A stretch of DNA of 64,000 nt from a virus (IMGVR_UViG_3300025383_000009), one strand, 5' to 3'; shown: positions 6,023 to 38,063, counted from the first letter of the stretch. Numbers and translations are program-made. Notes: generated by a model from the sequence alone, not told the origin.

Positions 6023-6837
6023 TGAGTAAAATTTCAATAGTAACGGCTTTCTTTGATATTGGTCGTGGTGAATGGACACCAGATAAAGGACTACCGCATT
6101 ATTTGCATAGAACAACTGATACTTATCTAGAAAGATTTAGTAATCTATGCAAATTGGAAAATGACATTACTGTTTTCACGTCAGATGATTTAAAACATAA
6201 GGTAATTGATATATGTAAAGACCGTTTAGACACAACAAAAATTATTCCAATTGATGTGAATAGTCATTTTTCTAATATGAGAGATTTAATCATTAATGTT
6301 CAAAAAGATCCTGAATTCCAAAAGAAAGTTAATCCTCAACAAGTAAGAAATCCAGAATATTGGAATCCTGATTATGTTCTTGTGACTAATCTGAAAGCAT
6401 ACTTTGCAAATATGGCTGTCAAATATAATTATACACAAAATGATATGGTTGCATGGATTGATTTTGGTTATTGCCGTAGTGAAAATAATATTCCTGCTAG
6501 TAAAATATGGGAATATGATTTTGATGAAACAAAAATTCACCTATTCAATTACAAACCATATGATGATAAACCAATAGACCACGCTGTTCTTAATAATGAT
6601 GTTTATATCTTGGGTGCAAAAGTGGTGGCTCATAAAGATATGTGGCAAAAAATGTCCGACCTAATGACACAATCTTTTGTTGATTTACAAGAAAAAGGTT
6701 TAGTTGATGATGACCAAGGTCTATGGCTACAGTCATATATAAATGAACCTAAGGTATTTGAATTGCATCAGATTCCTGACCATCAGCTTGGTCACGATCC
6801 ATTTGTATTGTTTAATAAATTTAATAATAAAGTTTAA
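6022..6837 (+). CDS. htrL: HtrL/YibB-family protein (LPS-core-locus glycosyltransferase-like)
   Basis: IVTAFFDIGRGEW, NPEYWNPDYVLVTNLKAYF, AWIDFGYCR and DDDQ closely match E. coli HtrL as recalled. Confidence 0.8.
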   Translation: MSKISIVTAFFDIGRGEWTPDKGLPHYLHRTTDTYLERFSNLCKLENDITVFTSDDLKHKVIDICKDRLDTTKIIPIDVNSHFSNMRDLIINVQKDPEFQKKVNPQQVRNPEYWNPDYVLVTNLKAYFANMAVKYNYTQNDMVAWIDFGYCRSENNIPASKIWEYDFDETKIHLFNYKPYDDKPIDHAVLNNDVYILGAKVVAHKDMWQKMSDLMTQSFVDLQEKGLVDDDQGLWLQSYINEPKVFELHQIPDHQLGHDPFVLFNKFNNKV

Positions 6838-6838
6838 T

Positions 6839-7462
6839 ATGATTGATAATTATGAATTGATAGAACCTGGACATTGGTTTCAAAGTAAACCTACCGGTGA
6901 AATTATGAAGTATGATACTAACTATATGCAGTATTATACTAAAATGGACTTTAGTATGTCCAAATTACGTTTTGATTTACTTTCAAAATATGTTAAGTTT
7001 GATTCTATATGTGACTTTGGTTATGGTGATGGAGCATTTCTGAAGTATGCTCACATGAATGGTAAGAAATGTTTTGGACATGATATATCAAACTATCCTC
7101 TCCCAAATGATGTGGAGTTTGTGGCTAATGTCAAAGATGTTGAAGTTGATGTCATTACATTCTTTGATTCTATTGAACATATTCCTTCTCCAAATATCCA
7201 TGAGTTTCTCGGTTCAATTAACACAAAATATGTTATGATATCATTACCATGGATGCACGAAAGAATGGGTGCTGAATGGTTTAGAACATGGAAACACCGT
7301 AAAGAAAATGAACACTTCCATCATTTTGATTCTCATGGATTAATTACATTGATAGACAAAGCAGGATTCATACCAATGTATATCTGTAATCATGAGGATG
7401 AAATTCGTAAACCGGTTTCATACCTTCCAAACATTTTAACTATTATTGCAAAAAAGAGATAA
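6839..7462 (+). CDS. Class I SAM-dependent methyltransferase
   Basis: ICDFGYGDGAFL motif I; FFDSIEHI; start moved to ATG 6839. Confidence 0.8.
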   Translation: MIDNYELIEPGHWFQSKPTGEIMKYDTNYMQYYTKMDFSMSKLRFDLLSKYVKFDSICDFGYGDGAFLKYAHMNGKKCFGHDISNYPLPNDVEFVANVKDVEVDVITFFDSIEHIPSPNIHEFLGSINTKYVMISLPWMHERMGAEWFRTWKHRKENEHFHHFDSHGLITLIDKAGFIPMYICNHEDEIRKPVSYLPNILTIIAKKR

Positions 7463-7464
7463 TC

Positions 7465-8208
7465 ATGCAAGTATATCTTAGCTCAACTGCCAACTTAGGT
7501 GATTTTTTAAATGGCTTTCCTGTTTTGTCTGGTCTTTATAAACAATATGGAAAATTTGACCTCATTGTTAAAAGAGATTTGAATAAATTTAAAGGTATCA
7601 AAGAGTTTTTGAATTATCAAGATATCTTTTCTTCAGTTGAGTTTGATAGTGATGTTTTTGTGTATGGCAGTATCATTAACCTCAGTTCTTGGACTAGAGA
7701 AGAACAAAGTAATCCAAATCGACCAATTGAAACTTGTCGTTATGAAAACTGGTTGAGAGATAACTATCCTAATTTAGAATTTGAAGTTGATGATGATGTA
7801 GAAATTAAAGTACCTGAATTAGATATTGAAATTGAAGATGCTTATTACTGTGGTGACCGATGGGATGCACCAGGCACAGATGATAGAAGAGCAACTGCTG
7901 TTCTATCTCATTTAAAAGATTTTAAATTCTTATCGTATGAAAATTCATTATTGACTAACGCATACATCATTAAAAATCTAAAGAAACCTTTCATTACTAA
8001 TTTTACTGGTGTGGCCGTTCTTGCAGACTTATTAAATGTTTCCTCTTATGTTGTATGGAAAGCAGAAGATTGGAATCCTGAATTCAGAAAAGGTGATAAT
8101 TGTTATTGGGATAATGGTAAAGATATTAATCAAGTATTTAAAAAACATTTCTATTTGGACCGTAAATCTAAACTAGTGCATAATAATGAATTAGAAAGTT
8201 TATTGTGA
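7465..8208 (+). CDS. GT9 (heptosyltransferase)-like protein, divergent
   Basis: LGDFLNGFPVLSGL N-terminal motif; FITNFTGVAVLA resembles the GT9 C-terminal motif. Confidence 0.5.
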   Translation: MQVYLSSTANLGDFLNGFPVLSGLYKQYGKFDLIVKRDLNKFKGIKEFLNYQDIFSSVEFDSDVFVYGSIINLSSWTREEQSNPNRPIETCRYENWLRDNYPNLEFEVDDDVEIKVPELDIEIEDAYYCGDRWDAPGTDDRRATAVLSHLKDFKFLSYENSLLTNAYIIKNLKKPFITNFTGVAVLADLLNVSSYVVWKAEDWNPEFRKGDNCYWDNGKDINQVFKKHFYLDRKSKLVHNNELESLL

Positions 8209-8915
8209 TTATCAATATTATTGAAGGAGTGTTTGGTGGTCCACTTCGTAATGGTGATTTAATTGGTGTTGCAAATGTTATAGCACATTTAAGAAAACAA
8301 ACACCAGAAATTAAGTTTCATATGAAACAAGGCTCAGTTAATTCTGCCGATTATGTGCAGAAGTTTTACCAGTTTATGTTAAAGAATACAGATTATTTTT
8401 CTACTGAACCTGGTGATAAAGAATTAGCGTGGCGAAGAGTCAATCTTTGGGATTTCCGTGATATCATTGGTGACAATGTTATTATACCAAATAATGAACC
8501 TATGCAAAAGAAGATTGTAGTTTGTCCAATCTTTGATGCTCCATATAATGTATATCGTAATTGGCCTCGCCACGTCTTTGAGGAAATTATTGCAAAGTAT
8601 TCAACGAATGAATATAAGGATTATGAAAAGGTAATTTGTGTGCATGACCATTTTGCCAAAGCCTGTGAGTTTGAAGGCTGGAGATACTCTACCAATTTTG
8701 ACCAAAATTTATACCACATTATGACTGCCGAAACATTCATTGGTGGTGACACAGGTACTAGCCATTTTGCTTGGTCGCTTGACAGAGCACCAGCAAATCT
8801 GTTATACTATAATTCTGGTCGGGGTTTAATGCATTGTTTACCATTCTATCTTTTAGAAGGCAAAGGTAAAATAGTTAAGTATTGGCTAGATTTAGAAGGA
8901 ACAACATGGCAGTAA
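8205..8915 (+). CDS. GT9 (heptosyltransferase)-like protein
   Basis: NGDLIG, RNWP and FIGGDTGTSHFA match GT9 D(S/T)GxxHxA. Confidence 0.6.
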   Translation: MIINIIEGVFGGPLRNGDLIGVANVIAHLRKQTPEIKFHMKQGSVNSADYVQKFYQFMLKNTDYFSTEPGDKELAWRRVNLWDFRDIIGDNVIIPNNEPMQKKIVVCPIFDAPYNVYRNWPRHVFEEIIAKYSTNEYKDYEKVICVHDHFAKACEFEGWRYSTNFDQNLYHIMTAETFIGGDTGTSHFAWSLDRAPANLLYYNSGRGLMHCLPFYLLEGKGKIVKYWLDLEGTTWQ

Positions 8916-10285
8916 AGTTAGTTATATTTGACCTTGATGGTGTTTTAATGGACAGTAGAGAGCTACATTATGAAGCTCTCAATCGTGCTATACATACAGT
9001 AACCGATTCATACAACTATATTATTACCCGTGAAGAACATTTATCAAAATATGACGGACTAAACACTACAAAAAAATTACAGATGCTTACTCAAGAAAAA
9101 GGTTTGCATATTGATTGGTATGATGAAATTTGGAAAGAAAAACAAAAACAAACATTTGATTTAATTCATACAGCACCAAAGAATCCTGATATTCTTAAAA
9201 TAATGCATAATCTGAATTCTAAAGGATGGAAGATTGCAGTAGCGTCCAACAGTATTCGTGAAACAGTAAAGACATCTTTATTATGTATGGATATTTTAAA
9301 TTATGTTGATTATTATGTAAGCAACGAAGATGTGTTTAATCCAAAACCATTTCCTGAAATGTATTGGAAATGTATGACAATGATGAAAGCTCTACCTAAA
9401 GATACTATCATTGTGGAAGATTCACATATTGGCCGTGAAGGCGCATTTAACTCTGGTGCACATTTGTATCCAGTAAAAGATGCTTATGATTTGAATGTGG
9501 AAGATTTTTTAAGCTATATTGAAGAATTTGAAGATAGTGGTCGTATAAAATCCATACCTTGGAGAAATAAGAAGATGAATGTATTGATTCCTATGGCAGG
9601 TGCCGGTAGTAGATTTGCTTCAGCAGGTTATACTTTCCCTAAACCATTGATTGAAGTCAAAGGTAAACCAATGATTCAAGTTGTAGTGGATAATCTAAAT
9701 GTAGATGCACATTTTATTTTTATTTGCCAAAAAGAACATTACGAGAAATATAATTTACAATCAGTTTTAAATTTGATTGCGCCCGGTTGTGATATTATAC
9801 AAGTTGATGGTTTGACCGAAGGCGCTGCATGTACCACGTTACTAGCTAAAGAATTAATTAATAGTGACGAACCTCTATTGATGGCAAACTCTGACCAGTT
9901 TGTTGAATGGAATTCAAATGAATGTTTATATGCCTTTACTGCTGATTCTATCGATGGAGGCATTATTACTTTTGAAGCCACTCATCCTAAATGGTCTTAT
10001 GCTAAGTTAGGTGAAGATGGTTTTGTATCTGAAGTTGCAGAGAAGAAACCTATTTCTAATATGGCAACAGTTGGTATCTATTATTGGAAAAAAGGTTCTG
10101 ACTATGTTAAGTATGCAGAACAGATGATTGAAAAGAATATTCGCACTAATAATGAATTTTATGTTTGTCCTGTATTCAATGAAGCTATTGGTGATGGCAA
10201 AAAGATTCGTGTTAAAAATATTAAGAAAATGTGGGGTATTGGTACTCCAGAAGATTTAAATTACTTTTTGGAGCATTACAAATGA
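8906..10285 (+). CDS. Fusion of HAD phosphatase and sugar-phosphate nucleotidyltransferase
   Basis: FDLDGVL, VASNS, KP, VEDS (HAD motifs I-IV); then IPMAGAGSRF...PKPLI and GIGTPEDL; start moved to ATG 8906. Confidence 0.9.
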   Translation: MAVKLVIFDLDGVLMDSRELHYEALNRAIHTVTDSYNYIITREEHLSKYDGLNTTKKLQMLTQEKGLHIDWYDEIWKEKQKQTFDLIHTAPKNPDILKIMHNLNSKGWKIAVASNSIRETVKTSLLCMDILNYVDYYVSNEDVFNPKPFPEMYWKCMTMMKALPKDTIIVEDSHIGREGAFNSGAHLYPVKDAYDLNVEDFLSYIEEFEDSGRIKSIPWRNKKMNVLIPMAGAGSRFASAGYTFPKPLIEVKGKPMIQVVVDNLNVDAHFIFICQKEHYEKYNLQSVLNLIAPGCDIIQVDGLTEGAACTTLLAKELINSDEPLLMANSDQFVEWNSNECLYAFTADSIDGGIITFEATHPKWSYAKLGEDGFVSEVAEKKPISNMATVGIYYWKKGSDYVKYAEQMIEKNIRTNNEFYVCPVFNEAIGDGKKIRVKNIKKMWGIGTPEDLNYFLEHYK

Positions 10286-10995
10286 AAACAGCGGTAATGA
10301 TTGTTGGAAATTATAGAACTTGGAACGAAACAAAGCCAAGTTTTCTAAAACAATTTGGAGATATTGATACATTTATTTGTTCATACGATTTACGATATGG
10401 ATATCATCCTAGAGGATGGGGTGTGACTGATACACAAGATGAACTTATTACCGAACAGACATGGATTGAAGGATTATCTGACGTAAATGTTAAATTGGCA
10501 AACATTGAACAATTTTCTCAAGTAGACGAAATAATTAAGAATGAACTGCGAGAAATTAAATTGAACATACCAGAAAATGCTTATCAGTCGTATGGTCAAT
10601 ATCGTAAGTTTAAAATTGCAACAGAAATGGTTCAACATTACGAGAACCAAAACAATTTTAAGTATGATATTTTAGTCCGCACTCGATTTGATTTGGTGTA
10701 TCAAGACGAACCTATTATATTAGATATTCAAGAAAATGAAATGGGTTATCATCACGGTACTAGCCCAGCTGATGCTTTACCTGGTGACCAATTCTTTTTC
10801 ACTTCAAGAGATAACATGATTAAGATGTCCGATTTTATGTTTAATGAGTTTTATAATCCTATCTACGAAGATAGTCATCTATGTCCTCCACATGGCATAT
10901 TACAAAACGCACTTAAACATAATAATATAACCAAATTGGTCCGTAATTCAATTAAACATCTATTAAGAAAGAATGGAACAGAACTAGTGCTATGA
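10282..10995 (+). CDS. Putative glycan-pathway protein (GT-like)
   Basis: VMIVGNYRT N-terminus and YDILVRTRFDL motif typical of glycan-locus proteins. Confidence 0.55.
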   Translation: MKTAVMIVGNYRTWNETKPSFLKQFGDIDTFICSYDLRYGYHPRGWGVTDTQDELITEQTWIEGLSDVNVKLANIEQFSQVDEIIKNELREIKLNIPENAYQSYGQYRKFKIATEMVQHYENQNNFKYDILVRTRFDLVYQDEPIILDIQENEMGYHHGTSPADALPGDQFFFTSRDNMIKMSDFMFNEFYNPIYEDSHLCPPHGILQNALKHNNITKLVRNSIKHLLRKNGTELVL

Positions 10996-11693
10996 CAAAT
11001 CTATACAACGACAATTCCGATATCCAAAAAAATCAAAATATGTATGACAGTTACAATAACTTTATGTTTAGTAATGATAGAGTTGTGTTTAATAAGTTAT
11101 ACAGTAAAATGTATTTCTATGAAATGACAAAACATCTACCTGGCGATATTGTTGAGTGTGGAGTTTTCAAAGGTTCAGGAATCTTGGCATGGTTAAAAAT
11201 ATTGGCCATGAACGAACCTAATAGTATCAAGAAAGTAATGGGTTATGATTTTTTTGATCCAAGTTTTGTTGATGATATGAAAACTGGTGTAGATAAAGAT
11301 ACAATGAAGCAAGTTTTTACAAGAGATAAAAATTTAATTGTAGATGATGTTTCGTATGAAGGAATTCAAAATAAAATTATTAATGCTGGTTTTGATTCAT
11401 CAAAGTTTGAGTTGATTAAAGGTGATATCATTGAAACCTCACAAAATACAGTAGAAGAAAAACCAGGTTTAAGAATCAGTATATTGTATTTGGATATGGA
11501 CCTAGATAAACCAACATATGCAGCACTCAAAACATTTTGGAATAATATTGTAACTGGCGGAGTAATTGTATTTGATGAATATGCTTATCATAGTTGGAGT
11601 GAATCGAATGGTGCAGATGATTTTATTAAAGAAATGGGTCTAACATTACATACAACCGGTATTAAAGCGCCAACCGCTTATATTATAAAATGA
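10992..11693 (+). CDS. TylF/MycF-family sugar O-methyltransferase
   Basis: GDIVECGVFKG, LYLDMDL and GGVIVFDEY. Confidence 0.85.
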   Translation: MTNLYNDNSDIQKNQNMYDSYNNFMFSNDRVVFNKLYSKMYFYEMTKHLPGDIVECGVFKGSGILAWLKILAMNEPNSIKKVMGYDFFDPSFVDDMKTGVDKDTMKQVFTRDKNLIVDDVSYEGIQNKIINAGFDSSKFELIKGDIIETSQNTVEEKPGLRISILYLDMDLDKPTYAALKTFWNNIVTGGVIVFDEYAYHSWSESNGADDFIKEMGLTLHTTGIKAPTAYIIK

Positions 11694-12160
11694 AATATAT
11701 TGCACATCGTGGTCTTTTTGATGGTCCAGATAAAGATAAAGAAAATAGTCCTACTCAAATCAATCAAGCTTTAATTAAAGGATTTGATGTTGAAGTTGAT
11801 GTTTGGTTTGTAGATAATCAATGGTATCTTGGCCATGATAGTCCAACATACAAAGTTGAATATAGTTTTTTAGAAGATTCTAGATTTTGGATTCACGCAA
11901 AAAATTTAGATGCTCTATATGTATTGGGTGCCGATTCAAAATTAAATTTCTTTTGGCATCAAGAAGATAACTTCACTTTAACTTCTAAAGGTTATATTTG
12001 GACTTATCCAGATAAACCATTAACCAAGAATAGTATTTGTGTTTTACCTGAATGGAACAATGATATCTCTAAAGGATATAATCCTGATTGTTATGGAATT
12101 TGTTCGGATTTTGTATCTATTATTACCAAAACTCAATTTTCCGATATCTATATATCATAG
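11690..12160 (+). CDS. GDPD/PI-PLC-like phosphodiesterase
   Basis: IAHRG...ENS...DVEVDVW...LGHD...GICSD. Confidence 0.8.
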   Translation: MKYIAHRGLFDGPDKDKENSPTQINQALIKGFDVEVDVWFVDNQWYLGHDSPTYKVEYSFLEDSRFWIHAKNLDALYVLGADSKLNFFWHQEDNFTLTSKGYIWTYPDKPLTKNSICVLPEWNNDISKGYNPDCYGICSDFVSIITKTQFSDIYIS

Positions 12161-12201
12161 CCAACAATTCTAGCGTTCCAAAAGCAAAAGCATCAAAGTT
12201 G

Positions 12202-12209
12202 TATAAATA
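12202..12209 (+). promoter_or_regulatory. T4 late promoter TATAAATA
   Basis: Exact consensus in an intergenic gap ahead of the internal-protein cluster; gp33 is encoded in the window. Confidence 0.7.
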
Positions 12210-12256
12210 GGTAATCGTTACAGGCAACCATAGTGTGTTGCAGTCAGAAAGATTTA

Positions 12257-13438
12257 ATGATAACATTCAAGACGTTTTTAAAAGAAGAATACGAGCCATC
12301 ACCAGAAGGCAAACTTAAGCACATTCATCATGCTGAAGACAGGCCTTTATTACATGGTGGCAAAGGTTTTACTCACGCCTTCAATGCATTAAATCAAGCG
12401 CACGAACACATAAAATCTGGCGGTCACAGTTCAGCATTAACAATGAAATATGATGGTTCGCCTGCTGTTGTTTTTGGTCATCATCCAGAAACAGGTAAAT
12501 TCTTTGTAGCATCCAAATCAGCATTCAATAAAAATCCAAAGTTGAATTATACCCATAAGGATATAGAAAAGAATCACGGCCATGCGCCTGGTCTTATGGA
12601 CAAACTCCATGACGCTTTAAATCATCTCAAAAAAGTATCACCTAAAACAGGCGTTTATCAAGGTGATATGATGTTTGGTTCAACTGATAAAAAAGAAACT
12701 AAAAACGGTGTTTCTTTCACTCCTAATACCATTACATATACAGGAAAAGGTGAAGAAGCAAATAAGATTAGAAAATCTAAAATGGGTGTTATTGTTCACA
12801 CACAATATCATGGTGACAATATTGCTTCAATGAAAGCAGACCCACATCCAGATTTACATAACTTCGCACAACATCCAGATGTATGGCACAAATCAGCCAA
12901 TCACGATACTAAACAAGTCCATTATTCAGAAAATGACCAAAAAGAATTTAATTCTCATATGGCCGCAGCAAAAGCAATACATGATGAACATAAATCAACA
13001 ATGTATAAAGCTACACAACCACATCAAGGAGATGCTGGGCATTTAGCAACATATATAAATCATACAGTCAGAACAGGTGAAACTCCATCTGCTGAAGGAC
13101 TTAAAAAGCATATAGCTAGTAAGTATAAAAAAGAGATTGATAAGTTAAAAACACCAGCAGCACAATCTCGTAAAGCAAGTGAAGCTAATAAGCATGCAGA
13201 CCATATAGATAACAATAAAGAACACTATAATAATTTGTTGAAAATGCATCATCATTTACAGCAAGCAAAAGATATATTAGTTAATAATTTAAACCAACAT
13301 GAGGGCGGTTTAGAACACCATATTGGTAAAAAGAGAACAAATCCAGAAGGGTTTGTTATCAATCATGCTGGTGAACCAACAAAATTAGTTAATAGAGCAG
13401 AATTTAGTAAAGCCAACCTTTTAAAAGTGAGAAAATGA
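12257..13438 (+). CDS. Ligase-like (KxDG nucleotidyltransferase) protein with capsid-targeting-like N-terminus
   Basis: MITFKTFLKEE start; KYDGSP, YQGDMM, EGFVI and TKLVNR resemble ligase motifs I/III/IV/V. Confidence 0.6.
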   Translation: MITFKTFLKEEYEPSPEGKLKHIHHAEDRPLLHGGKGFTHAFNALNQAHEHIKSGGHSSALTMKYDGSPAVVFGHHPETGKFFVASKSAFNKNPKLNYTHKDIEKNHGHAPGLMDKLHDALNHLKKVSPKTGVYQGDMMFGSTDKKETKNGVSFTPNTITYTGKGEEANKIRKSKMGVIVHTQYHGDNIASMKADPHPDLHNFAQHPDVWHKSANHDTKQVHYSENDQKEFNSHMAAAKAIHDEHKSTMYKATQPHQGDAGHLATYINHTVRTGETPSAEGLKKHIASKYKKEIDKLKTPAAQSRKASEANKHADHIDNNKEHYNNLLKMHHHLQQAKDILVNNLNQHEGGLEHHIGKKRTNPEGFVINHAGEPTKLVNRAEFSKANLLKVRK

Positions 13439-15351
13439 AGACCTTTTTAGAATTAGTAGAAGAAAAACAATCGACACATAAACCTGTGGTGGTAGGTTTT
13501 GGTCGTATGAATCCTCCTACATCAGGTCATCTAAAACTTATTGATAAGGTTAGAGAAATAGCAGATAAAAACAAAGCTAAACATAAAGTTATTGTTACTC
13601 ATACACAAGATTCAAAAAGAAATCCATTATCAGGCCAACAAAAACTTAAACATTTAAAAAGATATTCACCTGGTACTAATTTTGAAACATCTTCAAAAGA
13701 CCATCCAACTATATTACATCATGCTGCTAAATTGCATGCTCAAGGACACGACCATTTGATTATGGTTGCTGGTTCTGATAGAGTTAAAGAATATCAGGAC
13801 TTATTACACAAATACAATGGTAAAGAAGGACAACACGGTTACTTCAATTTCAAAAAGATAGAAGTTAAGTCAGCAGGCCATCGTGATCCAGATTCGGAAG
13901 GTGCAGAAGGTATGTCTGGTACAAAGATGAGAGAACACGCTAAGAACAATGATTTCTCATCATTTAGACAAGGTGTTCCATCTCATGTTCCTGACCATCA
14001 CGCTAGAGAATTAATGAAAGATGTTCGTAGAGGCATGGGTCTTAATGAACAATTCGATAGAGGTATGTTTAAAGCAATATTTGTGACTGGTGGTCCAGGT
14101 TCAGGTAAAGATATTGTTATTCGTGAAGCTATTGCTGAATCAAAGATTACTGAATTAAACTTTACACAAGTGGTAGATATTCTTAACGATAAACAAAAAC
14201 TTGCTATGAAATCAATGAATCCTAGAAATGAAGCAGTCAGAACAAGAGGTCCATTAATTATCAACGGTCCAGCTGATGATTTAGAAAAAATCAATCATAT
14301 CAAAGAAGAATTAGAAGAACTTGGTTACGAAACCATGATGATTTTTGTCAATACAACTAACGAAGTATCTAAAGAAAGAAATACTTTACTATCCAGAATG
14401 ATGGTTGAATCTATTAGACAGGATAAGTGGAGTAAATCTCAAGAAAATACTAAATATTTCATTGAGGCATTTAACAACTTTGTTGCCTTTGATAATACAG
14501 GTTATATTGATACAAAAGAAGAAGATATCAATGACATCTATCAATCAACAAAGATATTTTTAGATGCTAAGGCGATAAACGAAACAGTTGATGATTGGTA
14601 TTTGAGAAACATTAACTTGAATGAAAAAGTTAATGAATTATTCAATGAAAAAGATGCCAAAGGTATTCAACTTAAAACTGTAGGTAAATATAATGCTTTC
14701 TATAAAGCAAAAGGTCCTGCAGATATTAAAAGAGATAATCGCACAAGTAGATTTAGTGTTACAAGTGACAATACACTAAAAGGTGACCAAATTAAAGGTA
14801 ATGTATTACCTAGAAAAGACCCAAACGGTCAAGGTCATTCGGGTGGTTCTTGGTCTGGTGCTTATAATGAAGCAGCACCAACATTAACTTGGAATAAACC
14901 ACCAAAAGAACCAAACTTTAATTATGACAATGATAAGAACAAGAAGTTAAAAAGAGGTAATAGTTCATTAAGTGCTGGTCGAGTGACTCAACCACCAGGC
15001 TTAGGAAGAACATACGATACAAGAGCAGGTGGTCAAGGTGCCGCAGCAGGTGCCGGACTTGGCGACCAAACATATAGCGAAGATAGAGAATATAGTAACG
15101 CAAGTCAGAACGGTACAGCAATGCTAGGTGCTAAATTAGAACCTAATCCATTAGCAGAAAAGAAACCGTTTAATAAATTTAGAAAAAGCATTAAAGAGTT
15201 TAATGGCTTTCAAAATGATGTAGAATCTGGTGTTGGTGGTGTCTTGGGCGGTTCAGACAATAAAGAACGTATGGACAGTTATAAAGACCCTATTAGACAT
15301 ATACAAAATGACTATTCATTAAAGAAGAAGAAGAAAAATGCTAAAATTTAA
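13435..15351 (+). CDS. Cytidylyltransferase/NMNAT-like domain fused to P-loop kinase, plus low-complexity tail
   Basis: FGRMNPPTSGH (HxGH type), SGTKMRE, then GGPGSGKD Walker A; MKTFLELVEE start. Confidence 0.8.
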   Translation: MKTFLELVEEKQSTHKPVVVGFGRMNPPTSGHLKLIDKVREIADKNKAKHKVIVTHTQDSKRNPLSGQQKLKHLKRYSPGTNFETSSKDHPTILHHAAKLHAQGHDHLIMVAGSDRVKEYQDLLHKYNGKEGQHGYFNFKKIEVKSAGHRDPDSEGAEGMSGTKMREHAKNNDFSSFRQGVPSHVPDHHARELMKDVRRGMGLNEQFDRGMFKAIFVTGGPGSGKDIVIREAIAESKITELNFTQVVDILNDKQKLAMKSMNPRNEAVRTRGPLIINGPADDLEKINHIKEELEELGYETMMIFVNTTNEVSKERNTLLSRMMVESIRQDKWSKSQENTKYFIEAFNNFVAFDNTGYIDTKEEDINDIYQSTKIFLDAKAINETVDDWYLRNINLNEKVNELFNEKDAKGIQLKTVGKYNAFYKAKGPADIKRDNRTSRFSVTSDNTLKGDQIKGNVLPRKDPNGQGHSGGSWSGAYNEAAPTLTWNKPPKEPNFNYDNDKNKKLKRGNSSLSAGRVTQPPGLGRTYDTRAGGQGAAAGAGLGDQTYSEDREYSNASQNGTAMLGAKLEPNPLAEKKPFNKFRKSIKEFNGFQNDVESGVGGVLGGSDNKERMDSYKDPIRHIQNDYSLKKKKKNAKI

Positions 15352-16033
15352 ACAATATCTTGACGAAGTTAAGAAACCTACAGGTGCCTTAAAAAAGGCT
15401 TGTTGGAAAGGTTATACAGCAATTGGTACTAAACAAAAGAATGGTAGAACAGTACCAAACTGTGTACCTGAAGAAGTAGAACAAGTAAATGAAATAGACA
15501 AAGAAACAGTTAAGAGATATTTGGATAAAGTTACAACAGACCAATTAAAAAAGACTGGCTATCAACCTGATATGTATGGTAAATTAGTACCAAAAAGACA
15601 AAAAGGTGTTGATAACGCATTTAAGAGATTACAAGTTAAGCCTACAACAGAAGAACTTGAAGAATTGTTTGATATTTTAGAAGAAGTAGTTGATGGCATC
15701 GCAGAAGAAAGTAATATTGATCCAGATATTCTTTGGGAAAATCTTGAAGATGTTTCAGATGAAGAACTATACGAAACTGCCGCTTGGCGCAGAAAAGAAG
15801 GTAAAAGTCCTACAGGTGGTTTAAATGCAAAAGGAATTGCTTCTTATCGTAGAGAGAATCCAGGATCTAAATTAAAAAAGGCCGTTACAGGCAAAGTAAA
15901 ACCAGGAAGTAAAGCCGCTAAACGCAGAAAATCATTCTGTGCTAGAATGGGTGGAATGCCTGGACCAATGAAAAAACCAGATGGTAAACCAACAAGAAAA
16001 GCACTCGCATTACGCAAGTGGAAATGCAGATAA
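15338..16033 (+). CDS. Modular probable head-internal protein
   Basis: MLKFKQYLDE start; CWKGY..VPNCVP module and a basic C-terminal module separated by acidic linkers. Confidence 0.6.
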   Translation: MLKFKQYLDEVKKPTGALKKACWKGYTAIGTKQKNGRTVPNCVPEEVEQVNEIDKETVKRYLDKVTTDQLKKTGYQPDMYGKLVPKRQKGVDNAFKRLQVKPTTEELEELFDILEEVVDGIAEESNIDPDILWENLEDVSDEELYETAAWRRKEGKSPTGGLNAKGIASYRRENPGSKLKKAVTGKVKPGSKAAKRRKSFCARMGGMPGPMKKPDGKPTRKALALRKWKCR

Positions 16034-16046
16034 AGGAGAAATAAAA

Positions 16047-18068
16047 ATGTTTCAAAAAGATAAAGTAACCCAATCAATGATTGATGCCGTTAACCAAGTA
16101 TTAGGAGAGGCTAAAGTTGAACCAGCTAAACCTGATCCAGAGGCTATTGCTCGTAAAAAGAAACTAGACGCATTACGAGATAAACAAGATGCTGAAAAGG
16201 CAGAAAAAGGACATTCTCCATCTGCTACCCGTAAGGTTGCTGGTCATGCTTACGGTGGTGCTAAACAAAAAGATGATGAAATGGATGAAGAAGTTAAATT
16301 AGATGAAGCTGAAATGGATGAATCTGGCTTACGCATGGCTGCACATGCTGCTCACAAAGCAGGCCAATCACATTTTGAATTCAAAGGCAAAAAATATCCA
16401 GTTAAGGTTACAGAAGATGGTAAAGTTGATTGTGACTATGCTAAAGTTAAAGATATTGCTAGAAAAGAAGTTAAGGGTCATGAAAAATCAATGCATAAAG
16501 AAGAATTATCTTTTGCTAAGAAATTAAAATCAATGTTAGAAGCAAAAGGTCCTTTAGCAGGTGCTCCTGACGTATTCACCGATAACAATCTTGGTGAAGA
16601 AGAAATGTCTGATGCTCAAATGAAGAAAAGAGAAAAAATTGTAATGAGCATGAAAGATAAAACTGCTCAGTTTAAAGCAAAGTATGGTAAAAATTGGAAA
16701 AATGTAATGTATGCTACTGCTACTAAGCAAGCGATGAAAGAAGATGCAGACATTACTAAACCTAATACAGAAAATAAAGGTGAAACAAAAGAAAGACAAA
16801 AGATTACTACTAATCCAGGTCCTGTAGATATCAAAACAGATGACAAATTAGGTAAACCTACTCCACAAGCTTATTTCACATCTAAAGAATTAGAGCAAGT
16901 AACACAAGAAGAAGTTATGGGTGAATTAAAACATTTACGCCATAAAGAAAAAGGAGAGCATAAAAAGAGAGTGTCTGATTTTAAAAAACATCACGACAAA
17001 CATCAAGTAGATGATGGATGTGACCATTATCAAGAAGATATTGAATTTGATTTAATCGATGAAGGTAAAGATGATGGTGATTATACTCATGTTGCTCACT
17101 ACGAAGACAATGATGGTAACTGGATGGCTAAATTATTAATCGATGCTGAACATGACGGTCATGCTATTGAAACAGCAAACAAAGCTATGGGTAAAGGTCC
17201 ATTTGCTGGTTTAAGAGTTCGTAAGATTGAACGAGTAATGAAAGTTCATGACGGTAGAATGCAAGAAGAAGTAGAACAACTTGATGAGTTGGATCCAAAA
17301 ACTTTAGCATCATATGCTAAGAAAGCCTCTCATGATGCTCGTATTAAACAAACAGTAGCTAGAGATTTTCTTGCTAAATCTAATACAGCTAGAAGTCCAA
17401 GAAAAAAAGAAACATGGTCTAGTCTTTCTAAAAAGTACCAAAGTGGTGCATGGAAAAGAGAAAAAGGCCATGATTTAGCTATTGATAAGTTAGCTAAAGA
17501 AGATGTAGAATATATTGATGAAGGCAAGATGAAAGATATCTACACTTCAATGATGATGCATGCTGATAAAAAAGGTTATAAGAGCCATAAAGAATTTACA
17601 CCAGCTGATTATACTGCTGTAGGTAAAGAACATGGTATTTCAGGTAAAGATTTAGCAGTAATTGCTGGTCATAAAACAGCATCACAAGTTGCTAAAGAAG
17701 AAACTGAAGTTGAAATCAATGAAGGCAAAATGAAAGATATCTACACTTCAATGATGAACCATGCTGATAAAAAAGGATACAAAAGTCATAAAGAATTTAC
17801 TTCAGCAGACTACAATGCAGTAGGCAAAGAACATGGCATTTCAGGTAAAGATTTAGCAGTTATTGCTGGTCATAAAACAGCATCACAAGTTGCTAAAGAA
17901 GAAGCAGAAGGTTCATGGCAAAAAGAATCACCATGGAAAAAATCACCTGGTACTGTAACAGATAAGTCTGGTGCTAAACATACACCAATGTCTAGAGTTA
18001 AAGATATTGCTAAACAAGCACTAAAAAAAGTAAAACAAGAAACAATGATGGGTAAAATTTCTAACTAA
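16047..18068 (+). CDS. Large modular probable head-internal polyprotein
   Basis: AAGGAG RBS before ATG 16047; basic modules separated by Glu-rich linkers; one module duplicated. Confidence 0.65.
   Translation: MFQKDKVTQSMIDAVNQVLGEAKVEPAKPDPEAIARKKKLDALRDKQDAEKAEKGHSPSATRKVAGHAYGGAKQKDDEMDEEVKLDEAEMDESGLRMAAHAAHKAGQSHFEFKGKKYPVKVTEDGKVDCDYAKVKDIARKEVKGHEKSMHKEELSFAKKLKSMLEAKGPLAGAPDVFTDNNLGEEEMSDAQMKKREKIVMSMKDKTAQFKAKYGKNWKNVMYATATKQAMKEDADITKPNTENKGETKERQKITTNPGPVDIKTDDKLGKPTPQAYFTSKELEQVTQEEVMGELKHLRHKEKGEHKKRVSDFKKHHDKHQVDDGCDHYQEDIEFDLIDEGKDDGDYTHVAHYEDNDGNWMAKLLIDAEHDGHAIETANKAMGKGPFAGLRVRKIERVMKVHDGRMQEEVEQLDELDPKTLASYAKKASHDARIKQTVARDFLAKSNTARSPRKKETWSSLSKKYQSGAWKREKGHDLAIDKLAKEDVEYIDEGKMKDIYTSMMMHADKKGYKSHKEFTPADYTAVGKEHGISGKDLAVIAGHKTASQVAKEETEVEINEGKMKDIYTSMMNHADKKGYKSHKEFTSADYNAVGKEHGISGKDLAVIAGHKTASQVAKEEAEGSWQKESPWKKSPGTVTDKSGAKHTPMSRVKDIAKQALKKVKQETMMGKISN
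17520..17903 (+). repeat. Two in-frame copies (~183 nt, period 201 nt) of the EGKMKDIYTSMM...SQVAKEE module
   Basis: 17520-17702 and 17721-17903; mostly synonymous differences. Confidence 0.95.
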
Positions 18069-18078
18069 AGAGAACAAC

Positions 18079-19278
18079 ATGGCTAAAACACTAAAAGATG
18101 TAATTAAAAAGAATATTGCACCAGCAAGCAGATTTGGAAAAAATCCATCTGATCCTTGGTCAGTAAAATCTAATATCAATGAAACAGCTATGCTAGATAA
18201 ATTCTTATCATCTAGAGGAATTAATCCTAAATTTGCTGCCGTTGATACAAAAGATGCTTATGCTAAATCTAATGAATTTAAGAAATGGTTAAGAGACCAT
18301 CAATCAGGCACTCAAATGGAAGATATGACAACTAGCCGATATGCTGGTGATGCTCGTTCTAAAGATGTTCATTCACCTACAGCACAAAGAGAAAAAGATT
18401 TAGAAAAGGTTAGTAAACATCACGAAATTAAACCTGTTCATACAAATTCATCAAAGGTTGTTACTATGAAAAAACCAACAAGTGAAGCAGCTCATCCTGA
18501 TGAAAAGACCACAGATATGCTTCGTGGTCGTGTCAAAGGTGGTAAACCAAACGAGTTTAAGAGTTATAAGATTAGAATTTCTAAAGAAGAAGTTGAATAC
18601 ACTACAGAAATAGCAGCTTCAGTAATGGCTTCAAAATTAAATAAAGACGCAGATGAAAATCGCACTAGCATTGATGCTGAAGAATTGACTACAGACACTT
18701 TAGCTGGTAGAGTTAAAGGCGGTAAAGCTAATGCTGTATTATCATATAAAATTAGATTATCTCATGCTAAAGGTGAAGATGCTGATACTTTAGATGTAAC
18801 AAAAGAACCAGAAGATTCTAGTTTTCCACACAGAGAACAGTTTGAAATACAAGAAGACTTAATAGGTGATACAAAATCAGCAACAATTTCACCAGCAGAT
18901 GGAGCAAACGGTGGCGCAGAATCTGTTACAAAAAAATTATCTAGAAAAGCTCAATTAATTTTAGGTGTAGTTAAAAAAAGAGCTATGAAAGAAGATATGC
19001 ATGATTGGGAAAAAGAAGATAAATCTGTAGCATCTTATGGTAAAAAACCTAAATTTGAAAAGCAAGAAGATAAGAATGCAGAAAATAATAATGGTGAAAA
19101 GAAATCTGAAGCTGCAGGCACATTATCTGGCGGTACTACACTAACAGGTGAGAAAAGAGATACAGTAGAACTTGATCCATTGATGAGAAGTCGTCCTAAT
19201 CAACCAGATCCAACAAAGAAGAAAGACGACAAAAAAGATGACAAGAAAGACAAGCCTAAAGAAGCACCAAGAGGCTAG
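18079..19278 (+). CDS. Probable virion/internal protein, modular
   Basis: Internal repeat TTDMLRGRVKGGKPN / TTDTLAGRVKGGKAN; charged composition; in late cluster. Confidence 0.55.
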   Translation: MAKTLKDVIKKNIAPASRFGKNPSDPWSVKSNINETAMLDKFLSSRGINPKFAAVDTKDAYAKSNEFKKWLRDHQSGTQMEDMTTSRYAGDARSKDVHSPTAQREKDLEKVSKHHEIKPVHTNSSKVVTMKKPTSEAAHPDEKTTDMLRGRVKGGKPNEFKSYKIRISKEEVEYTTEIAASVMASKLNKDADENRTSIDAEELTTDTLAGRVKGGKANAVLSYKIRLSHAKGEDADTLDVTKEPEDSSFPHREQFEIQEDLIGDTKSATISPADGANGGAESVTKKLSRKAQLILGVVKKRAMKEDMHDWEKEDKSVASYGKKPKFEKQEDKNAENNNGEKKSEAAGTLSGGTTLTGEKRDTVELDPLMRSRPNQPDPTKKKDDKKDDKKDKPKEAPRG

Positions 19279-19282
19279 ATTA

Positions 19283-19290
19283 GATAAATA
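19283..19290 (+). promoter_or_regulatory. Late-promoter-like box GATAAATA
   Basis: Intergenic, upstream of AAGGAG RBS and ORF 19329. Confidence 0.5.
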
Positions 19291-19328
19291 CTTAACATAA
19301 CTAACCCGAGGTTAAAAGGAGAAAAGAA

Positions 19329-19952
19329 ATGCCAACATGGGGAAATACCGATACTGGTAATCAAAAACCAAAGTTTGACTATTTACGTCAAACAAGAGAA
19401 GTTTTACAATTTATAGTTTCATCTGGTAATACAGCAGGAAATAACGTAATTAGAGTTAGTTACAACGATGGCGCACAAAACAATGTAGCCAATGCTGGTG
19501 TAACTTCAGGTCAATATGTTTATTTCATGGCAAACGGATTTGCACTACCTGGCGGCACAGCAGGTAATGGTTATCCAGGTTTCTTTGCATCAAATACAAC
19601 AGTAGCATCAGTTAGTGGTAACACAATTACATTAACACAAAACTTATTCAATACAGTAAACGTAGGTTTTGGTGTTGAATTTGACAATGCTATCAATTAT
19701 GGAACAACAGCAGGTGCAAATACTTATTTCCTAGATACTATTTTAGTTACAGCATCTCGCACAGCAAATGGTAATAACGCAATTGCAAACGTAGGTAATA
19801 TGACTGCTGGTTGGGTTCATATTCAAAAGAAAGTGAACAGCGACGGTACAGTTCGTTACTTAAAAGAAACATTAGTTGCTTTAGCGAATGCTACTGCTTC
19901 AAATACAAGTTCAGGTAACACAAGCTTTGGTTCTATTGTAACTGGTTTATAA
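19329..19952 (+). CDS. Probable virion structural protein
   Basis: MPTWGNTD..KPK start; G/N/T-rich beta-type composition; GWVH motif. Confidence 0.6.
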   Translation: MPTWGNTDTGNQKPKFDYLRQTREVLQFIVSSGNTAGNNVIRVSYNDGAQNNVANAGVTSGQYVYFMANGFALPGGTAGNGYPGFFASNTTVASVSGNTITLTQNLFNTVNVGFGVEFDNAINYGTTAGANTYFLDTILVTASRTANGNNAIANVGNMTAGWVHIQKKVNSDGTVRYLKETLVALANATASNTSSGNTSFGSIVTGL

Positions 19953-20434
19953 TGATTAAGTTTCATGATTTCGTTGTTGAGGAATTAAATTTTCCTGTAA
20001 TAACTCTTGATAAAGAGAAAGTAGACCTTGATAAGGAATCTACTCGCAACGAAATCAATAGAAACCTATCATCTGAATTAGTTACTAATTTTATTAATCC
20101 TTATGCTGGCTGGTTAAAAGTTGGAAAAGTATTAACACTCTATAACATTACATTACCTAAGGTAATATTTAAAAATGATATAGAAGGCGAAGAAGTTGTT
20201 GCTATAACACAATTTGGTGCAGACCTTTCGGGTAAGGAATCTGCACCACAATTGCCTTATGAAGAAGAATATTATTTGTATTATAGTTATGAAGTTGTTG
20301 AATCTGGTTTATATGAAGCTTATGCTGTTATTGTAAACGGTGATGAATTAGAAAATATGCTTGAAGCTGATGACGAAGATGATGATGACATTGACGTTTT
20401 AGGACCTAAAAGCGAATTAGATTATAGAAAATAG
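19952..20434 (+). CDS. Acidic hypothetical protein with capsid-targeting-like N-terminus
   Basis: MIKFHDFVVEE start. Confidence 0.55.
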   Translation: MIKFHDFVVEELNFPVITLDKEKVDLDKESTRNEINRNLSSELVTNFINPYAGWLKVGKVLTLYNITLPKVIFKNDIEGEEVVAITQFGADLSGKESAPQLPYEEEYYLYYSYEVVESGLYEAYAVIVNGDELENMLEADDEDDDDIDVLGPKSELDYRK

Positions 20435-20446
20435 TTAAATTATATT

Positions 20447-20833
20447 ATGATTGATAATTTGACAGAAGAAAACTTTTTGATATATGCTATGAAGTGCTAT
20501 AATGCACCTAATTACATTATGTCAGAATTTGAAGGAGATATTAAGAGAACAAAATATCTTAAACGATTATTTCGTAGATATAAAACCAATAAATCTCTTA
20601 AAGAACGATTAATTCTAAATCATATTATTTTGTTGAATAATGTTTTTGGTCCAAAAGTGACCGCAAGAATATTATTCTACAAGATAGATGAACGAGATTA
20701 TGATATATTGAAAACATTTTTATTGTATGTAAATATATTACCAGACTTAATAGAAGGTATTAATGGCAAATCAATTAATACATCTGAAATACCTGTAGAC
20801 ATGACTGTTGCTGAAAAATTAAGGAATCTATGA
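20447..20833 (+). CDS. Conserved T4-like phage hypothetical protein
   Basis: EF..D.KR.KYLKRLF...LKERLILNHII.L.NVFG pattern recalled from T4-like phages. Confidence 0.65.
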   Translation: MIDNLTEENFLIYAMKCYNAPNYIMSEFEGDIKRTKYLKRLFRRYKTNKSLKERLILNHIILLNNVFGPKVTARILFYKIDERDYDILKTFLLYVNILPDLIEGINGKSINTSEIPVDMTVAEKLRNL

Positions 20834-21021
20834 AATCATTTAAAGAATATATCAAAGAAATGGGTGCAGGTGCTGTAGGTAGTGCTGGTCCAACTAATGT
20901 AGTTGGCGGTGGTGCAATTGCAGGTACAGGCGGTAAAGGCGGAGAACCTGGCGTTGATTTAAGAAAAAGGAAAAGAAATACACATAATCCAGTTATGATG
21001 GGTATTGGTAGAAGGAAATAA
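20830..21021 (+). CDS. Small Gly-rich/basic peptide with capsid-targeting-like N-terminus
   Basis: MKSFKEYIKE, then Gly-rich segment and RKRKR. Confidence 0.65.
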   Translation: MKSFKEYIKEMGAGAVGSAGPTNVVGGGAIAGTGGKGGEPGVDLRKRKRNTHNPVMMGIGRRK

Positions 21022-21023: not shown

Positions 21024-21605
21024 ATGTTCTTTCCTGAGTTTCTATCATATAATTGGATATTAGGTTACATACCTACTTGGGTTCCTATAGCAATTATTTG
21101 TTTTGGTGTCTTTCTAGCTATTCTAGAAATGACTTTTGAAATGTTGCAACTTATTCCTTACGGTTATAGGTTGCCTTTAAGAATAATCACTATTGTGATT
21201 CTTGCTCACGGTATCTATATAAAAGGACGCCAAGATGCAATTGTTCATGCTGAAGAAGAATTGAAGAAAACTGTAGCTGAACAAAAAGATGTAACTAATA
21301 AGGTACAACAAGATTTTACTAGACAACTTAATGATGTGAGAGCTAAAAATGAAGCACTTAAAAAAACTATTAATACCAAAGACGATACTATGTGTGATTT
21401 GCCTAAGTCTTTTGTCGAGTTGCACGACAGCGCTGCTAAAGGCACCGTTCCCGACACCTCCAAAAGAATTGATGGTACCTCCTCCGGAGTTGCACTCTCT
21501 ACAGCAGAACAAACAGTAGTAGAAAATTATAGTTTATATAATCAAATAGCAGAACAATTAAAAGCTTTACAATATTGGGTAGATGAACAAAGGAAATTAC
21601 ACTAA
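21024..21605 (+). CDS. Rz/spanin-like membrane protein
   Basis: N-terminal transmembrane segments, coiled coil, FVELHDSAA motif; adjacent to endolysin. Confidence 0.55.
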   Translation: MFFPEFLSYNWILGYIPTWVPIAIICFGVFLAILEMTFEMLQLIPYGYRLPLRIITIVILAHGIYIKGRQDAIVHAEEELKKTVAEQKDVTNKVQQDFTRQLNDVRAKNEALKKTINTKDDTMCDLPKSFVELHDSAAKGTVPDTSKRIDGTSSGVALSTAEQTVVENYSLYNQIAEQLKALQYWVDEQRKLH

Positions 21606-22213
21606 TGACACTTGAGCAATTAAAAAAAATACTAGTGGGAAATACTTCAGTTGATGGATGGTTTGAATCACTCAACAAATTTTTACCACAATACGGAATT
21701 AATACAAATAAAAGAATTGCAGCCTTTATTGGTGAATGTTCAGTTGAATCTGCTAATTTTACAAGAATTAAAGAGAATTTAAATTACAAAGCAGAATCAT
21801 TAGTTAAAGTGTGGCCTTCACATTTTGCTACATTAGATATTGCTAAACAATACGAACACAATCAAGAAAAGATTGCTAATCGTGCTTACGCTGGTCGTAT
21901 GGGTAATGGTGACGAATCTAGTGGTGATGGTTGGAAATTTGCAGGTAAAGGTTTAATTCAAATTACAGGCAAAGTTAATTATGAAAAATTTGCTGAATCA
22001 ATAGGTAAAGATATTGAAGAATTACCAGAATACTTATTGACATTTGATGGTGCTACAGAATCGGCTTGCTGGTTTTGGAAGACACACAATTTAAATGCTT
22101 TAGCTGATACCGGTGACATTGATAAAATATCAAAAGTTATCAATGGTGGTACTTTAGGATTAGAAGAAAGACGAACAAACTATCAACATGCTTTGAATAT
22201 ATTAGGAGGTTAA
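21605..22213 (+). CDS. GH19 (chitinase-like) endolysin
   Basis: AAFIGECSVES, ENLNY, GDGWKFAGKGLIQITGKVNY, INGG..GLEER. Confidence 0.9.
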   Translation: MTLEQLKKILVGNTSVDGWFESLNKFLPQYGINTNKRIAAFIGECSVESANFTRIKENLNYKAESLVKVWPSHFATLDIAKQYEHNQEKIANRAYAGRMGNGDESSGDGWKFAGKGLIQITGKVNYEKFAESIGKDIEELPEYLLTFDGATESACWFWKTHNLNALADTGDIDKISKVINGGTLGLEERRTNYQHALNILGG

Positions 22214-22214
22214 T

Positions 22215-22493
22215 ATGGCAATGCCAGATTTTATTACACATTTGGTTACAGGTAAAGACAATAAGACACACGATATTGCTCGTTGGTCTTGGTTATTAAC
22301 AACATTGGTTGTTATTGTTGGTGCAGGTTATAACGCTTACACATCAAATCTATTTGGTCTAAAAGATTTTGCACAAGCAATCGGTATGTTAGCTGGTGCT
22401 CATGGTGCAGCTGTATGGGCGAAAAAAGATACTGAACCAGAAGCACCAGAACCTGATGCAGTACCAGATGCAGAACCTGATCCAGAAAAATAA
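22215..22493 (+). CDS. Putative holin
   Basis: Two hydrophobic helices and charged C-terminus; directly after endolysin. Confidence 0.5.
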   Translation: MAMPDFITHLVTGKDNKTHDIARWSWLLTTLVVIVGAGYNAYTSNLFGLKDFAQAIGMLAGAHGAAVWAKKDTEPEAPEPDAVPDAEPDPEK

Positions 22494-22912
22494 TGGATAA
22501 CAACGATTTACTTGGTACTAAAATAGATGTAGGTGTGCTGAAAGAACAAGTAAGCACACTTACTCAACTTTGTTCCAAGATGGATACCGTGATTTCGAGA
22601 TTAAACGAACAACACGACAGACATATCGCAAAGGTTTATACCGACATGGAACATAGAAGATTAGAAACAGAAGCCGATGTAAAAGAAATTCATGATAGAA
22701 TTGATACTGTTCTTGATAAGGTACAAAATACAGAATTAAGAATCATGGAAGAAATTAAAGGGCTTCGTAAATGTATTCAAGACCATCAATCTAAAGAAAA
22801 AGAACAATTAGACAAACTTCTACAATGGAAATGGATGATTGTTGGTGGTATCATTGTAGTATCATGGTTATTATCTCACGGATTAGAAATTCTATCACAA
22901 ATTTCAAAATAA
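22493..22912 (+). CDS. Coiled-coil protein with C-terminal transmembrane helix
   Basis: Heptad-rich body; KWMIVGGIIVVSWLL. Confidence 0.6.
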   Translation: MDNNDLLGTKIDVGVLKEQVSTLTQLCSKMDTVISRLNEQHDRHIAKVYTDMEHRRLETEADVKEIHDRIDTVLDKVQNTELRIMEEIKGLRKCIQDHQSKEKEQLDKLLQWKWMIVGGIIVVSWLLSHGLEILSQISK

Positions 22913-37931: not shown

Positions 37932-38063
37932 CTATTTGAACTGCTCGAATGAGCTCGTTGATTTGAACTCAGCGAATTCATCATGCTGAAACCACCTAGA
38001 GTCCGATACAGCATATTTTATTACCAATCCTAATACAATACCAATTAATAGTCCTTTAAGCAT
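37932..38063 (-). CDS. Small membrane peptide (43 aa)
   Basis: MLKGLLIGIVLGLVIKY...; GGAGG RBS on the minus strand. Confidence 0.55.
   Translation of the reverse strand: MLKGLLIGIVLGLVIKYAVSDSRWFQHDEFAEFKSTSSFEQFK

Follow-up and report, generated by a model that had tools for sequence, protein, structure and literature searches.

The DNA considered here is a window of 64,000 nt from IMGVR_UViG_3300025383_000009, a 71-kb linear contig of approximately 43% completeness. Its gene content is that of a T4-like myovirus, with the gp41 helicase gene at the start of the window, the gp61 primase gene at 22952, nrdA and nrdB, gp59 and gp32; the source is a T4-like myovirus from fresh water, uncultured and with kinship to Kyanoviridae. 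Between the helicase and primase genes lies a block of predicted late genes (12202-21021, + strand) in which five proteins begin with variants of one ten-residue peptide, hereafter the tag, that resembles the capsid targeting sequence (CTS) of phage T4. The tagged proteins are p1 (12257-13438, 393 amino acids (aa), DUF6267), p2 (13435-15351, 638 aa, CTP_transf_like and Zeta_toxin), p3 (15338-16033, 231 aa, DUF6321), p7 (19952-20434, 160 aa, no known family) and p9 (20830-21021, 63 aa, phrog_3286), so that the bodies behind the five tags belong to different families. The untagged genes p4, p5 and p6 and a DUF7207 gene are interspersed among them.

The five tags are MITFKTFLKE (12257), MKTFLELVEE (13435), MLKFKQYLDE (15338), MIKFHDFVVE (19952) and MKSFKEYIKE (20830), and share the template M-x-x-F-x-x-[F/Y/L]-[L/I/V]-x-E: phenylalanine at position 4 and glutamate at position 10 are present in all five, which in order carry F, L, Y, F and Y at position 7 and L, V, L, V and I at position 8. 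The original prediction had located five such N-termini at these positions and seen none elsewhere in the window, and both observations were confirmed. A strict pattern anchored on the initial methionine matched only these five places among the 114 open reading frames (ORFs) of the contig, where 0.012 matches would be expected from composition and 0.046 from empirical frequency (Poisson P approximately 2e-12 and 2e-9, respectively). A looser pattern, applied to all 1439 in-frame starts in six frames of the 71-kb contig, returned the five tagged ORF starts and otherwise only internal, non-initiating matches at 9497 and 27905. Because the codons differ among the five tags, they are not a DNA repeat.

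Conservation of the tag is position-specific. In an alignment of 119 DUF6267 orthologues of p1 (71-85% identical), M1, F4, leucine or isoleucine at position 8 and E10 are present in every sequence, and phenylalanine or tyrosine at position 7 in 118, whereas positions 2, 3, 5, 6 and 9 each take seven to nine different residues and the length of the acidic linker behind the tag varies by six residues. Because some positions are kept in 118 or 119 of 119 sequences while those between them vary freely, the alignment indicates purifying selection on the peptide. Among the 120 listed orthologues of p2, M-K-[S/T]-F and leucine or isoleucine at position 7 are found in 119, valine, isoleucine, tyrosine or leucine at position 8 in 117, and E10 in 118. 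When orthologues were collected from 85 related loci, the tag was present on 84/84 of those of p1, 54/56 of p2, 5/5 of p7 and at least 10/17 of p9, and the sequences without a strict tag are mostly accounted for by start-call problems or by aspartate at position 10. For p3, three of ten orthologues fit the strict pattern and several others are near-variants; DUF6321 proteins in the related loci are tagged. No tag was found on the corresponding untagged genes, namely p4 (0/12), p5 (0/15), p6 (0/19), DUF7207 (0/32) and p10 (0/16). A scan for the pattern at the DNA level in this contig and three related ones (77-120 kb), which include the head module, gave 11 matches versus none in the reversed control; ten of the 11 fall on genuine ORF starts, of which nine belong to the same block and the tenth lies 6.7 kb upstream of it. 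Homologues without a tag in the Prochlorococcus phage P-HM2 have their first residue at the predicted cut or behind it: in the cytidylyltransferase it coincides with the start of the domain, and in an untagged glycine-rich homologue it is aligned to residue 11 of p9. Judging from models and alignments, the tag is a separable add-on outside the folded domains.

The T4 CTS has the sequence MKTYQEFIAE, behind which a single cut is made, and its fusion to any protein retains that protein in the head (PMC8442874). Suppressor scanning by Mullaney and Black (1996), as reviewed in PMC9026906, assigned targeting mainly to residues 4 and 7 and processing to residues 8 and 10; aspartate at position 10 blocked cutting but not targeting. 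The prohead protease gp21 cuts after glutamate, as it does at ITE-6 and LTE-619 of Alt (PMC5694885). Like the CTS of IPII and IPIII and the related propeptides of IPI and Alt, the peptide of the present phage is a ten-residue N-terminal tag in which position 4 is aromatic, 7 hydrophobic, 8 aliphatic and 10 glutamate. As in T4, it is carried by unrelated, clustered and here predicted late proteins that are either small and basic or, like Alt, of enzyme size: the predicted cargo consists of two enzymes (p1 and p2), two small and very basic proteins (p3, isoelectric point (pI) 9.6, and p9, pI 11.8) and one acidic protein (p7). The original prediction regarded large enzymes as unusual for this mechanism, but such a size is ordinary, given that T4 Alt matures to 68.2 kDa and that beta-galactosidase fused to a CTS is packaged (PMC5694885, PMC9026906). 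The tags differ from that of T4 in having phenylalanine rather than tyrosine at position 4, and in belonging to a distant freshwater and marine lineage with approximately 30-40% protein identity even to Kyanoviridae. The cargo differs as well, its enzymes being a predicted ligase-fold protein and a predicted nucleotidyltransferase/kinase, where T4 carries an ADP-ribosyltransferase and a restriction inhibitor.

A protease of the gp21 family is also present in the lineage, as it is in T4: a Peptidase_S77 (gp21) gene was found (E 1e-32 to 1e-38) in all three of the related contigs, of which the DUF6267 orthologues are 75-79% identical to p1. In the head module of one of them (IMGVR_UViG_3300022752_000030), a 177-aa protein encoded between the presumed portal gene and the gp21 gene (L101:2547-3080, - strand) starts with MKTLKDYISD, a CTS-like sequence with aspartate at position 10. 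In T4, this gene position is that of gp67 and gp68. The related contig's protease itself starts with MKLIKEVTE, which contains a V-T-E motif.

The nearest named relatives of the phage, at approximately 30-44% protein identity, are Pelagibacter phage HTVC008M, Methylophilales phage Melnitz, phage C48C1 and the cyanomyoviruses, and the gene order gp41...DUF6267...cytidylyltransferase...DUF7207...gp61-nrdA is common to HTVC008M, Melnitz, S-CRM01, P-HM2 and S-SM1. For some of these relatives the proteins of purified virions have been listed. The S-SM1 list comprises 41 proteins (Table S8 of Sullivan et al. 2010, PMC3037559), six of which are encoded in the syntenic block between gp41 and gp61 (T4-GC1453, T4-GC190, T4-GC1454, T4-GC1455, T4-GC425 and T4-GC426). 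The cytidylyltransferase of this block (T4-GC190, S-SM1_190) was detected with 25 peptide counts, the same number as gp6 (25) and more than the portal protein gp20 (18) (PMC3037559), and its counts are comparable with those of gp6 and gp22. It starts with MKKFSAFLNE. A second protein of the block, SSM1_192 (T4-GC1455, 7 peptide counts in virions), starts with MLSFKELQE, and in a scan of the 174-kb S-SM1 genome these two were the only strict or near-strict tagged starts, to which a looser pattern added gp23 and SSM1_231. The DUF6267 protein of S-SM1 is untagged and absent from the 41 virion proteins, although absence from mass spectrometry is weak evidence.

The virion proteome of S-CREM2 includes the cytidylyltransferase gp154 and its neighbours gp155, gp156 and gp160, and its authors noted that kinases and cytidylyltransferases recur in cyanophage virions and may be carried into the host (PMC10665884). 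S-CREM2 gp154 starts with MKNFSSFLTE. A putative protein kinase has been reported from virions of S-CRM01 (cited in PMC10665884); the S-CRM01 kinase g130 starts with MISFDQFLSE and the cytidylyltransferase of the same phage with MKLFNQFFKE. The p2 protein resembles the virion-associated T4-GC190 of cyanomyoviruses in being homologous to it (E 7e-34 with S-SM1_190 and 3e-22 with S-CREM2 gp154, both detected in virions), in being encoded in the same gp41-gp61 block, and in carrying the decapeptide that is found on the virion proteins. It differs from the cytidylyltransferases of S-SM1, S-CRM01 and S-CREM2 by being fused to a P-loop kinase, which a long low-complexity tail follows, and the DUF6267 protein is tagged here, unlike those of S-SM1, S-CRM01 and P-HM2. 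No report linking the presence of these enzymes in virions to a CTS-type tag was found in the literature searched.

The best explanation of these observations, to which a probability of roughly 0.7 may be assigned, is that T4-type CTS tags direct the five proteins into the capsid. Because the tag matches the head-loading signal of T4, the five proteins are probably packed in the virus particle. If the analogy holds, the tag would bind the scaffolding core during prohead assembly, with residues 4 and 7 as the determinants of targeting; a gp21-type prohead protease would then cut after Glu10 in the motif [L/I/V]-x-E; and the mature proteins would remain inside the head alongside the DNA and be released together with it upon infection. 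Cleavage after Glu10 is somewhat probable by this analogy, and the odds that the cargo would be ejected into the host are about even. The core of the original prediction, that tags of the T4 CTS type would send these proteins into the prohead, is strongly supported by the position-specific conservation, the orthology across 85 loci, the tagged homologues in cyanophage virions and the gp21-type protease of relatives; the anti-defence or takeover role that it gave to the cargo is speculative.

Several observations weigh against capsid targeting. The same orthologues in HTVC008M and P-HM2 carry a degenerate tag or none, and therefore do not need it for their function. A whole-genome scan of HTVC008M with the strict motif matched no real gene start, the tag being degenerate there (MKTLKELLRK, MKSFKDFQNVNE); for the same reason HTVC008M was dropped as a test of specificity. 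No prohead protease (Peptidase_S77) or scaffold gene was found in the 71-kb contig, which is about 43% of a genome. Avoidance of internal [LIV]xE sites is weak in p1 (0 versus 3.2 expected, P = 0.03), and p2 and p3 contain more such sites than shuffled sequences, so that these two proteins could be cut further; the argument that such avoidance would betray exposure to the protease was accordingly dropped. In the S-CREM2 study, the authors cautioned that virion preparations might contain abundant soluble proteins through co-purification (PMC10665884).

The tagged proteins might instead be accessories of the prohead core or scaffold, targeted to the core and then degraded and expelled, or confined in their function to the inside of the head (DNA condensation, for instance). 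Such a role would suit the small size and high basicity of p3 and p9, and the neighbouring p4 looks modular, with I-x-E before each repeat. The homologues found in mature virions, where many peptides represent them (25 counts for S-SM1_190), are at odds with it, as are the invariant catalytic motifs of p1 (KYDG, EGFV and K376) and p2 (PPTxGH, MSGTKMR and GGPGSGKD), which argue for retention of a predicted enzyme activity; it is considered distinctly improbable. No more is to be expected of the proposal that the shared N-terminal helix has another role (chaperone, assembly, mutual docking or translation initiation) and that detection in virions reflects co-purification, the contamination raised by the S-CREM2 authors. 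Lysine or AAA-rich second codons are common in highly expressed genes, and the tag starts are rich in AAA and AAG, but what is conserved is precisely the set of four positions that are functional in the T4 CTS (PMC9026906), and not the second codon. Moreover, detection in virions recurs in the independent studies of S-SM1 and S-CREM2, the latter of which cites further cyanophage virion proteomes; the tagged cytidylyltransferase of S-SM1 was detected and the adjoining untagged DUF6267 protein was not; and a head-module protein of a related contig has a similar start (MKTLKDYISD).

There is very little chance that the likeness of the tags, now without function, only records 5′ gene ends that recombination or duplication once spread. 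Common descent of the tags is itself likely, as the internal-protein loci of T-even phages shuffle their cargo behind a conserved CTS (PMC3012670), but the codons of the five tags differ, and four positions are held in 118 or 119 of 119 orthologues that are 71-85% identical while the five positions between them vary freely.

The p1 protein (DUF6267, Pfam E 9e-101) consists of the tag (12257-12286), an acidic linker and a domain that appears to be a ligase-fold nucleotidyltransferase with a helical insertion. An ORF finder placed its start at a GTG codon (12233), but the 119 orthologues begin at the methionine equivalent to 12257. In an AlphaFold 2 model with a mean predicted local distance difference test (pLDDT) score of 82 and a predicted template modelling score of 0.80, residues 1-21 are disordered (pLDDT below 50). 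Structural comparison by VIA-align gave Z scores of 9.0 with the Naegleria RNA ligase NgrRnl (5cot), 8.2 with Trypanosoma brucei REL1 (1xdn) and 7.2-7.4 with T4 Rnl1 and Rnl2, and ligases dominate the long alignments; by the tool's own statement, Z values near 8 can arise by chance. Ligases also head the Foldseek list, but weakly (E 0.13-0.7, none at E ≤ 0.001). The likeness to these RNA ligases is one of apparent nucleotidyltransferase fold (Z 7.2-9.0 over 171-196 residues) and of motifs. The KxDG motif K64-Y-D-G67 (motif I, with the catalytic lysine) is invariant in 34 sequences, and the invariant YQGD137, E364-G-F-V and K376-L-V, assigned by eye, stand in the order expected of motifs III, IV and V, for which they are candidates. 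The p1 protein differs from the RNA ligases in sequence (9-14% identity, with no sequence-level match to any solved structure), in the inserted helical bundle of approximately 120 residues before motif IV, and in having no recognisable OB or C-terminal domain. Searches of PDB sequences with phmmer (p1 and p2) and with an hmmsearch profile (p1) found nothing meaningful, and the ESM Atlas returned only viral hypothetical clusters for p1 and p7. Together, the VIA-align comparison and the motifs suggest a ligase-type nucleotidyltransferase fold for p1. The match of a separate 150-aa protein (3749-4201, +) to DUF6267 is confined to the helical insertion (profile positions 202-324; 27.2 bits versus a cut-off of 27), so that a stand-alone copy of the insertion lies about 8 kb upstream of the full DUF6267 gene.

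The p2 protein (tag 13435-13464) comprises a HIGH-type nucleotidyltransferase domain (residues ~15-205), a P-loop kinase domain (~205-400) and a disordered low-complexity tail of approximately 240 residues. Pfam assigned the first domain to CTP_transf_like (25.7 bits versus a cut-off of 21) and the second, when isolated, to Zeta_toxin (23.5 bits); NCBIfam added nothing beyond the cytidylyltransferase domain. The motifs P27-P-T-x-G31-H32 and M-S161-G-T163-K-M-R166 are invariant or nearly so in 31 sequences, and the P-loop of the kinase, which is of the Zeta-toxin type, reads GGPGSGKD. Foldseek matched p2 to ATP sulfurylase/adenosine 5′-phosphosulfate (APS) kinase (E 7e-8) and to NadR (E 2.6e-7). 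At the level of fold, p2 resembles NadR (nicotinamide mononucleotide adenylyltransferase plus ribosylnicotinamide kinase) and ATP sulfurylase/APS kinase in joining a HIGH nucleotidyltransferase to a P-loop kinase, whereas its sequence is 12-18% identical and it has the N-terminal tag and the disordered tail. A single family, phrog_455, covers both p1 and p2; fused forms therefore exist, and the two proteins probably work together. Roles of p1 and p2 in RNA repair or in the synthesis of a dinucleotide cofactor are open guesses.

The remaining tagged proteins are smaller. Behind its tag, p3 has a cysteine-containing module and a basic C-terminal DUF6321 domain (Pfam E 1e-22), and it has PHROG modules 727, 3477, 38880, 4359 and 27523 in common with S-SM1_191 and S-CREM2 gp160, both of which were detected in virions. 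The acidic p7 protein (pI 4.1) has structural neighbours of its Atlas model that align only from residue 20 onwards, and its counterparts by position, upstream of DUF7207, are the tagged proteins gp139 of HTVC008M and _27 of Melnitz. In p9, the tag is followed by a glycine-rich segment and a basic tail, and the pI given above is that of the predicted 53-aa mature form. Both p9 (E 8.7e-7) and the virion protein S-SM1_197 hit phrog_3286; the pairwise BLAST alignment of the two is not significant, and the link consists of phrog_3286 and a short match to P-HM2_171.

Of the untagged proteins, p4 (16044-18068, +; 674 aa) is modular and highly charged, and has a conserved N-terminal helix that ends in L-G-E at residue 22. 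Two 67-aa modules (repeats at 17523 and 17724; 58/67 residues identical) each follow directly after I-x-E (I-D-E and I-N-E), and all eight [LIV]xE sites of the protein lie at apparent borders between modules. By this arrangement, p4 may be a protease-cut polyprotein with separable modules. It is followed by p5 (18079-19278, +), a charged protein of 399 aa with an internal repeat, and by p6 (19329-19952, +), a protein of 207 aa with the N-terminus MPTWGNTD...KPK. In its N-terminus and gene position, p6 resembles the 'S-layer domain' proteins HTVC008M gp135, Melnitz_23 and S-SM1_195 (T4-GC425), of which the last was detected in virions with 17 peptide counts; the resemblance is one of N-terminal similarity and synteny, BLAST being not significant. 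BLAST of p4, p5, p6 and p7 against block proteins of five named relatives gave nothing significant except a short match of p4 to HTVC008M gp143. The untagged DUF7207 protein (20447-20833, +; 128 aa; Pfam E 2e-33) is conserved across the family.

The block comprises two runs of genes, within each of which the genes abut or overlap. An exact late-promoter-like box, TATAAATA (12202-12209, +), is located in the gap 12161-12256, 47 nt before the first tagged ATG, and a variant box with one mismatch, GATAAATA (19283-19290, +), is located 38 nt before the ATG at 19329. Late boxes had been predicted at both places; the one at 12202 stands, whereas the one at 19283 is a variant and not the canonical octamer. 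The two boxes occupy the block's only two sizeable intergenic gaps, ahead of both gene runs. Scans of the block for sigma-70 promoters and for terminators gave background levels, and the first strong sigma-70-like promoter (11/12) is at 22914, ahead of the primase gene. The octamer TATAAATA occurs twice in the window versus 10.7 times expected from shuffles, a scarcity that avoidance outside real promoters would explain.

The block has relatives only at the protein level: Megablast against 50,697 phage records gave no nucleotide match. In metagenomes, identical proteins occur on JGI contigs of up to 280 kb, and thousands of proteins are related to p1 and p2 (E ≤ 1e-10), the closest with 70-85% identity.

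Other features of the window lie outside the block. Directly after the gp41 helicase gene, a 370-aa protein (1375-2487, +) matches the Pfam family DruA of the Druantia defence proteins (E 4e-10; 39.7 bits versus a cut-off of 27), and its position is kept in related contigs. Between the gp41-proximal genes and the tagged block is a glycan-synthesis island (4482-12160, +) with GT2, HtrL/YibB, methyltransferases and a HAD-nucleotidyltransferase; its content is different in each related contig examined, where epimerases, aminotransferases and GT1 take the place of other genes. Directly after the block is a likely lysis cassette (21024-22912, +) composed of a membrane protein (phrog_4952), a GH19-like endolysin (21605-22213) and two small proteins with hydrophobic segments. 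Farther downstream, an island at 38000-42000 with 41-44% G+C, versus approximately 33% elsewhere, contains short genes mostly on the minus strand and resembles an insertion of foreign DNA.

For T4 and its close relatives, the use of a ten-residue tag to target proteins to the capsid is textbook knowledge. The CTS mechanism is known; what is new, as far as the searchable literature goes, is its extension to this lineage, the link to virion-associated enzymes of cyanophages and the type of cargo, and the use of a CTS by the very abundant aquatic T4-like phages is absent from that literature. If the extension is correct, it explains a puzzle of more than 15 years, the presence of a 'cytidylyltransferase' and of kinases in purified cyanophage virions. 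A simple sequence rule would then predict which proteins these phages carry into the cell, and the pre-loaded cargo would include enzymes of nucleotide or nucleic-acid metabolism, a kind not described for T4. A much broader possibility, for now a rather unlikely one, is that freshwater and marine T4-like phages deliver a ready-made ligase-fold nucleotidyltransferase and a NadR-like nucleotidyltransferase/kinase that act before phage gene expression, and that the CTS is an ancient, family-wide loading system with a cargo that metagenomes would reveal directly. In that case, the pre-delivered enzymes might, for example, rebuild NAD+ or another dinucleotide cofactor or reseal cut RNA, and their delivery would pre-empt abortive infection by NAD+ depletion or by anticodon nucleases.

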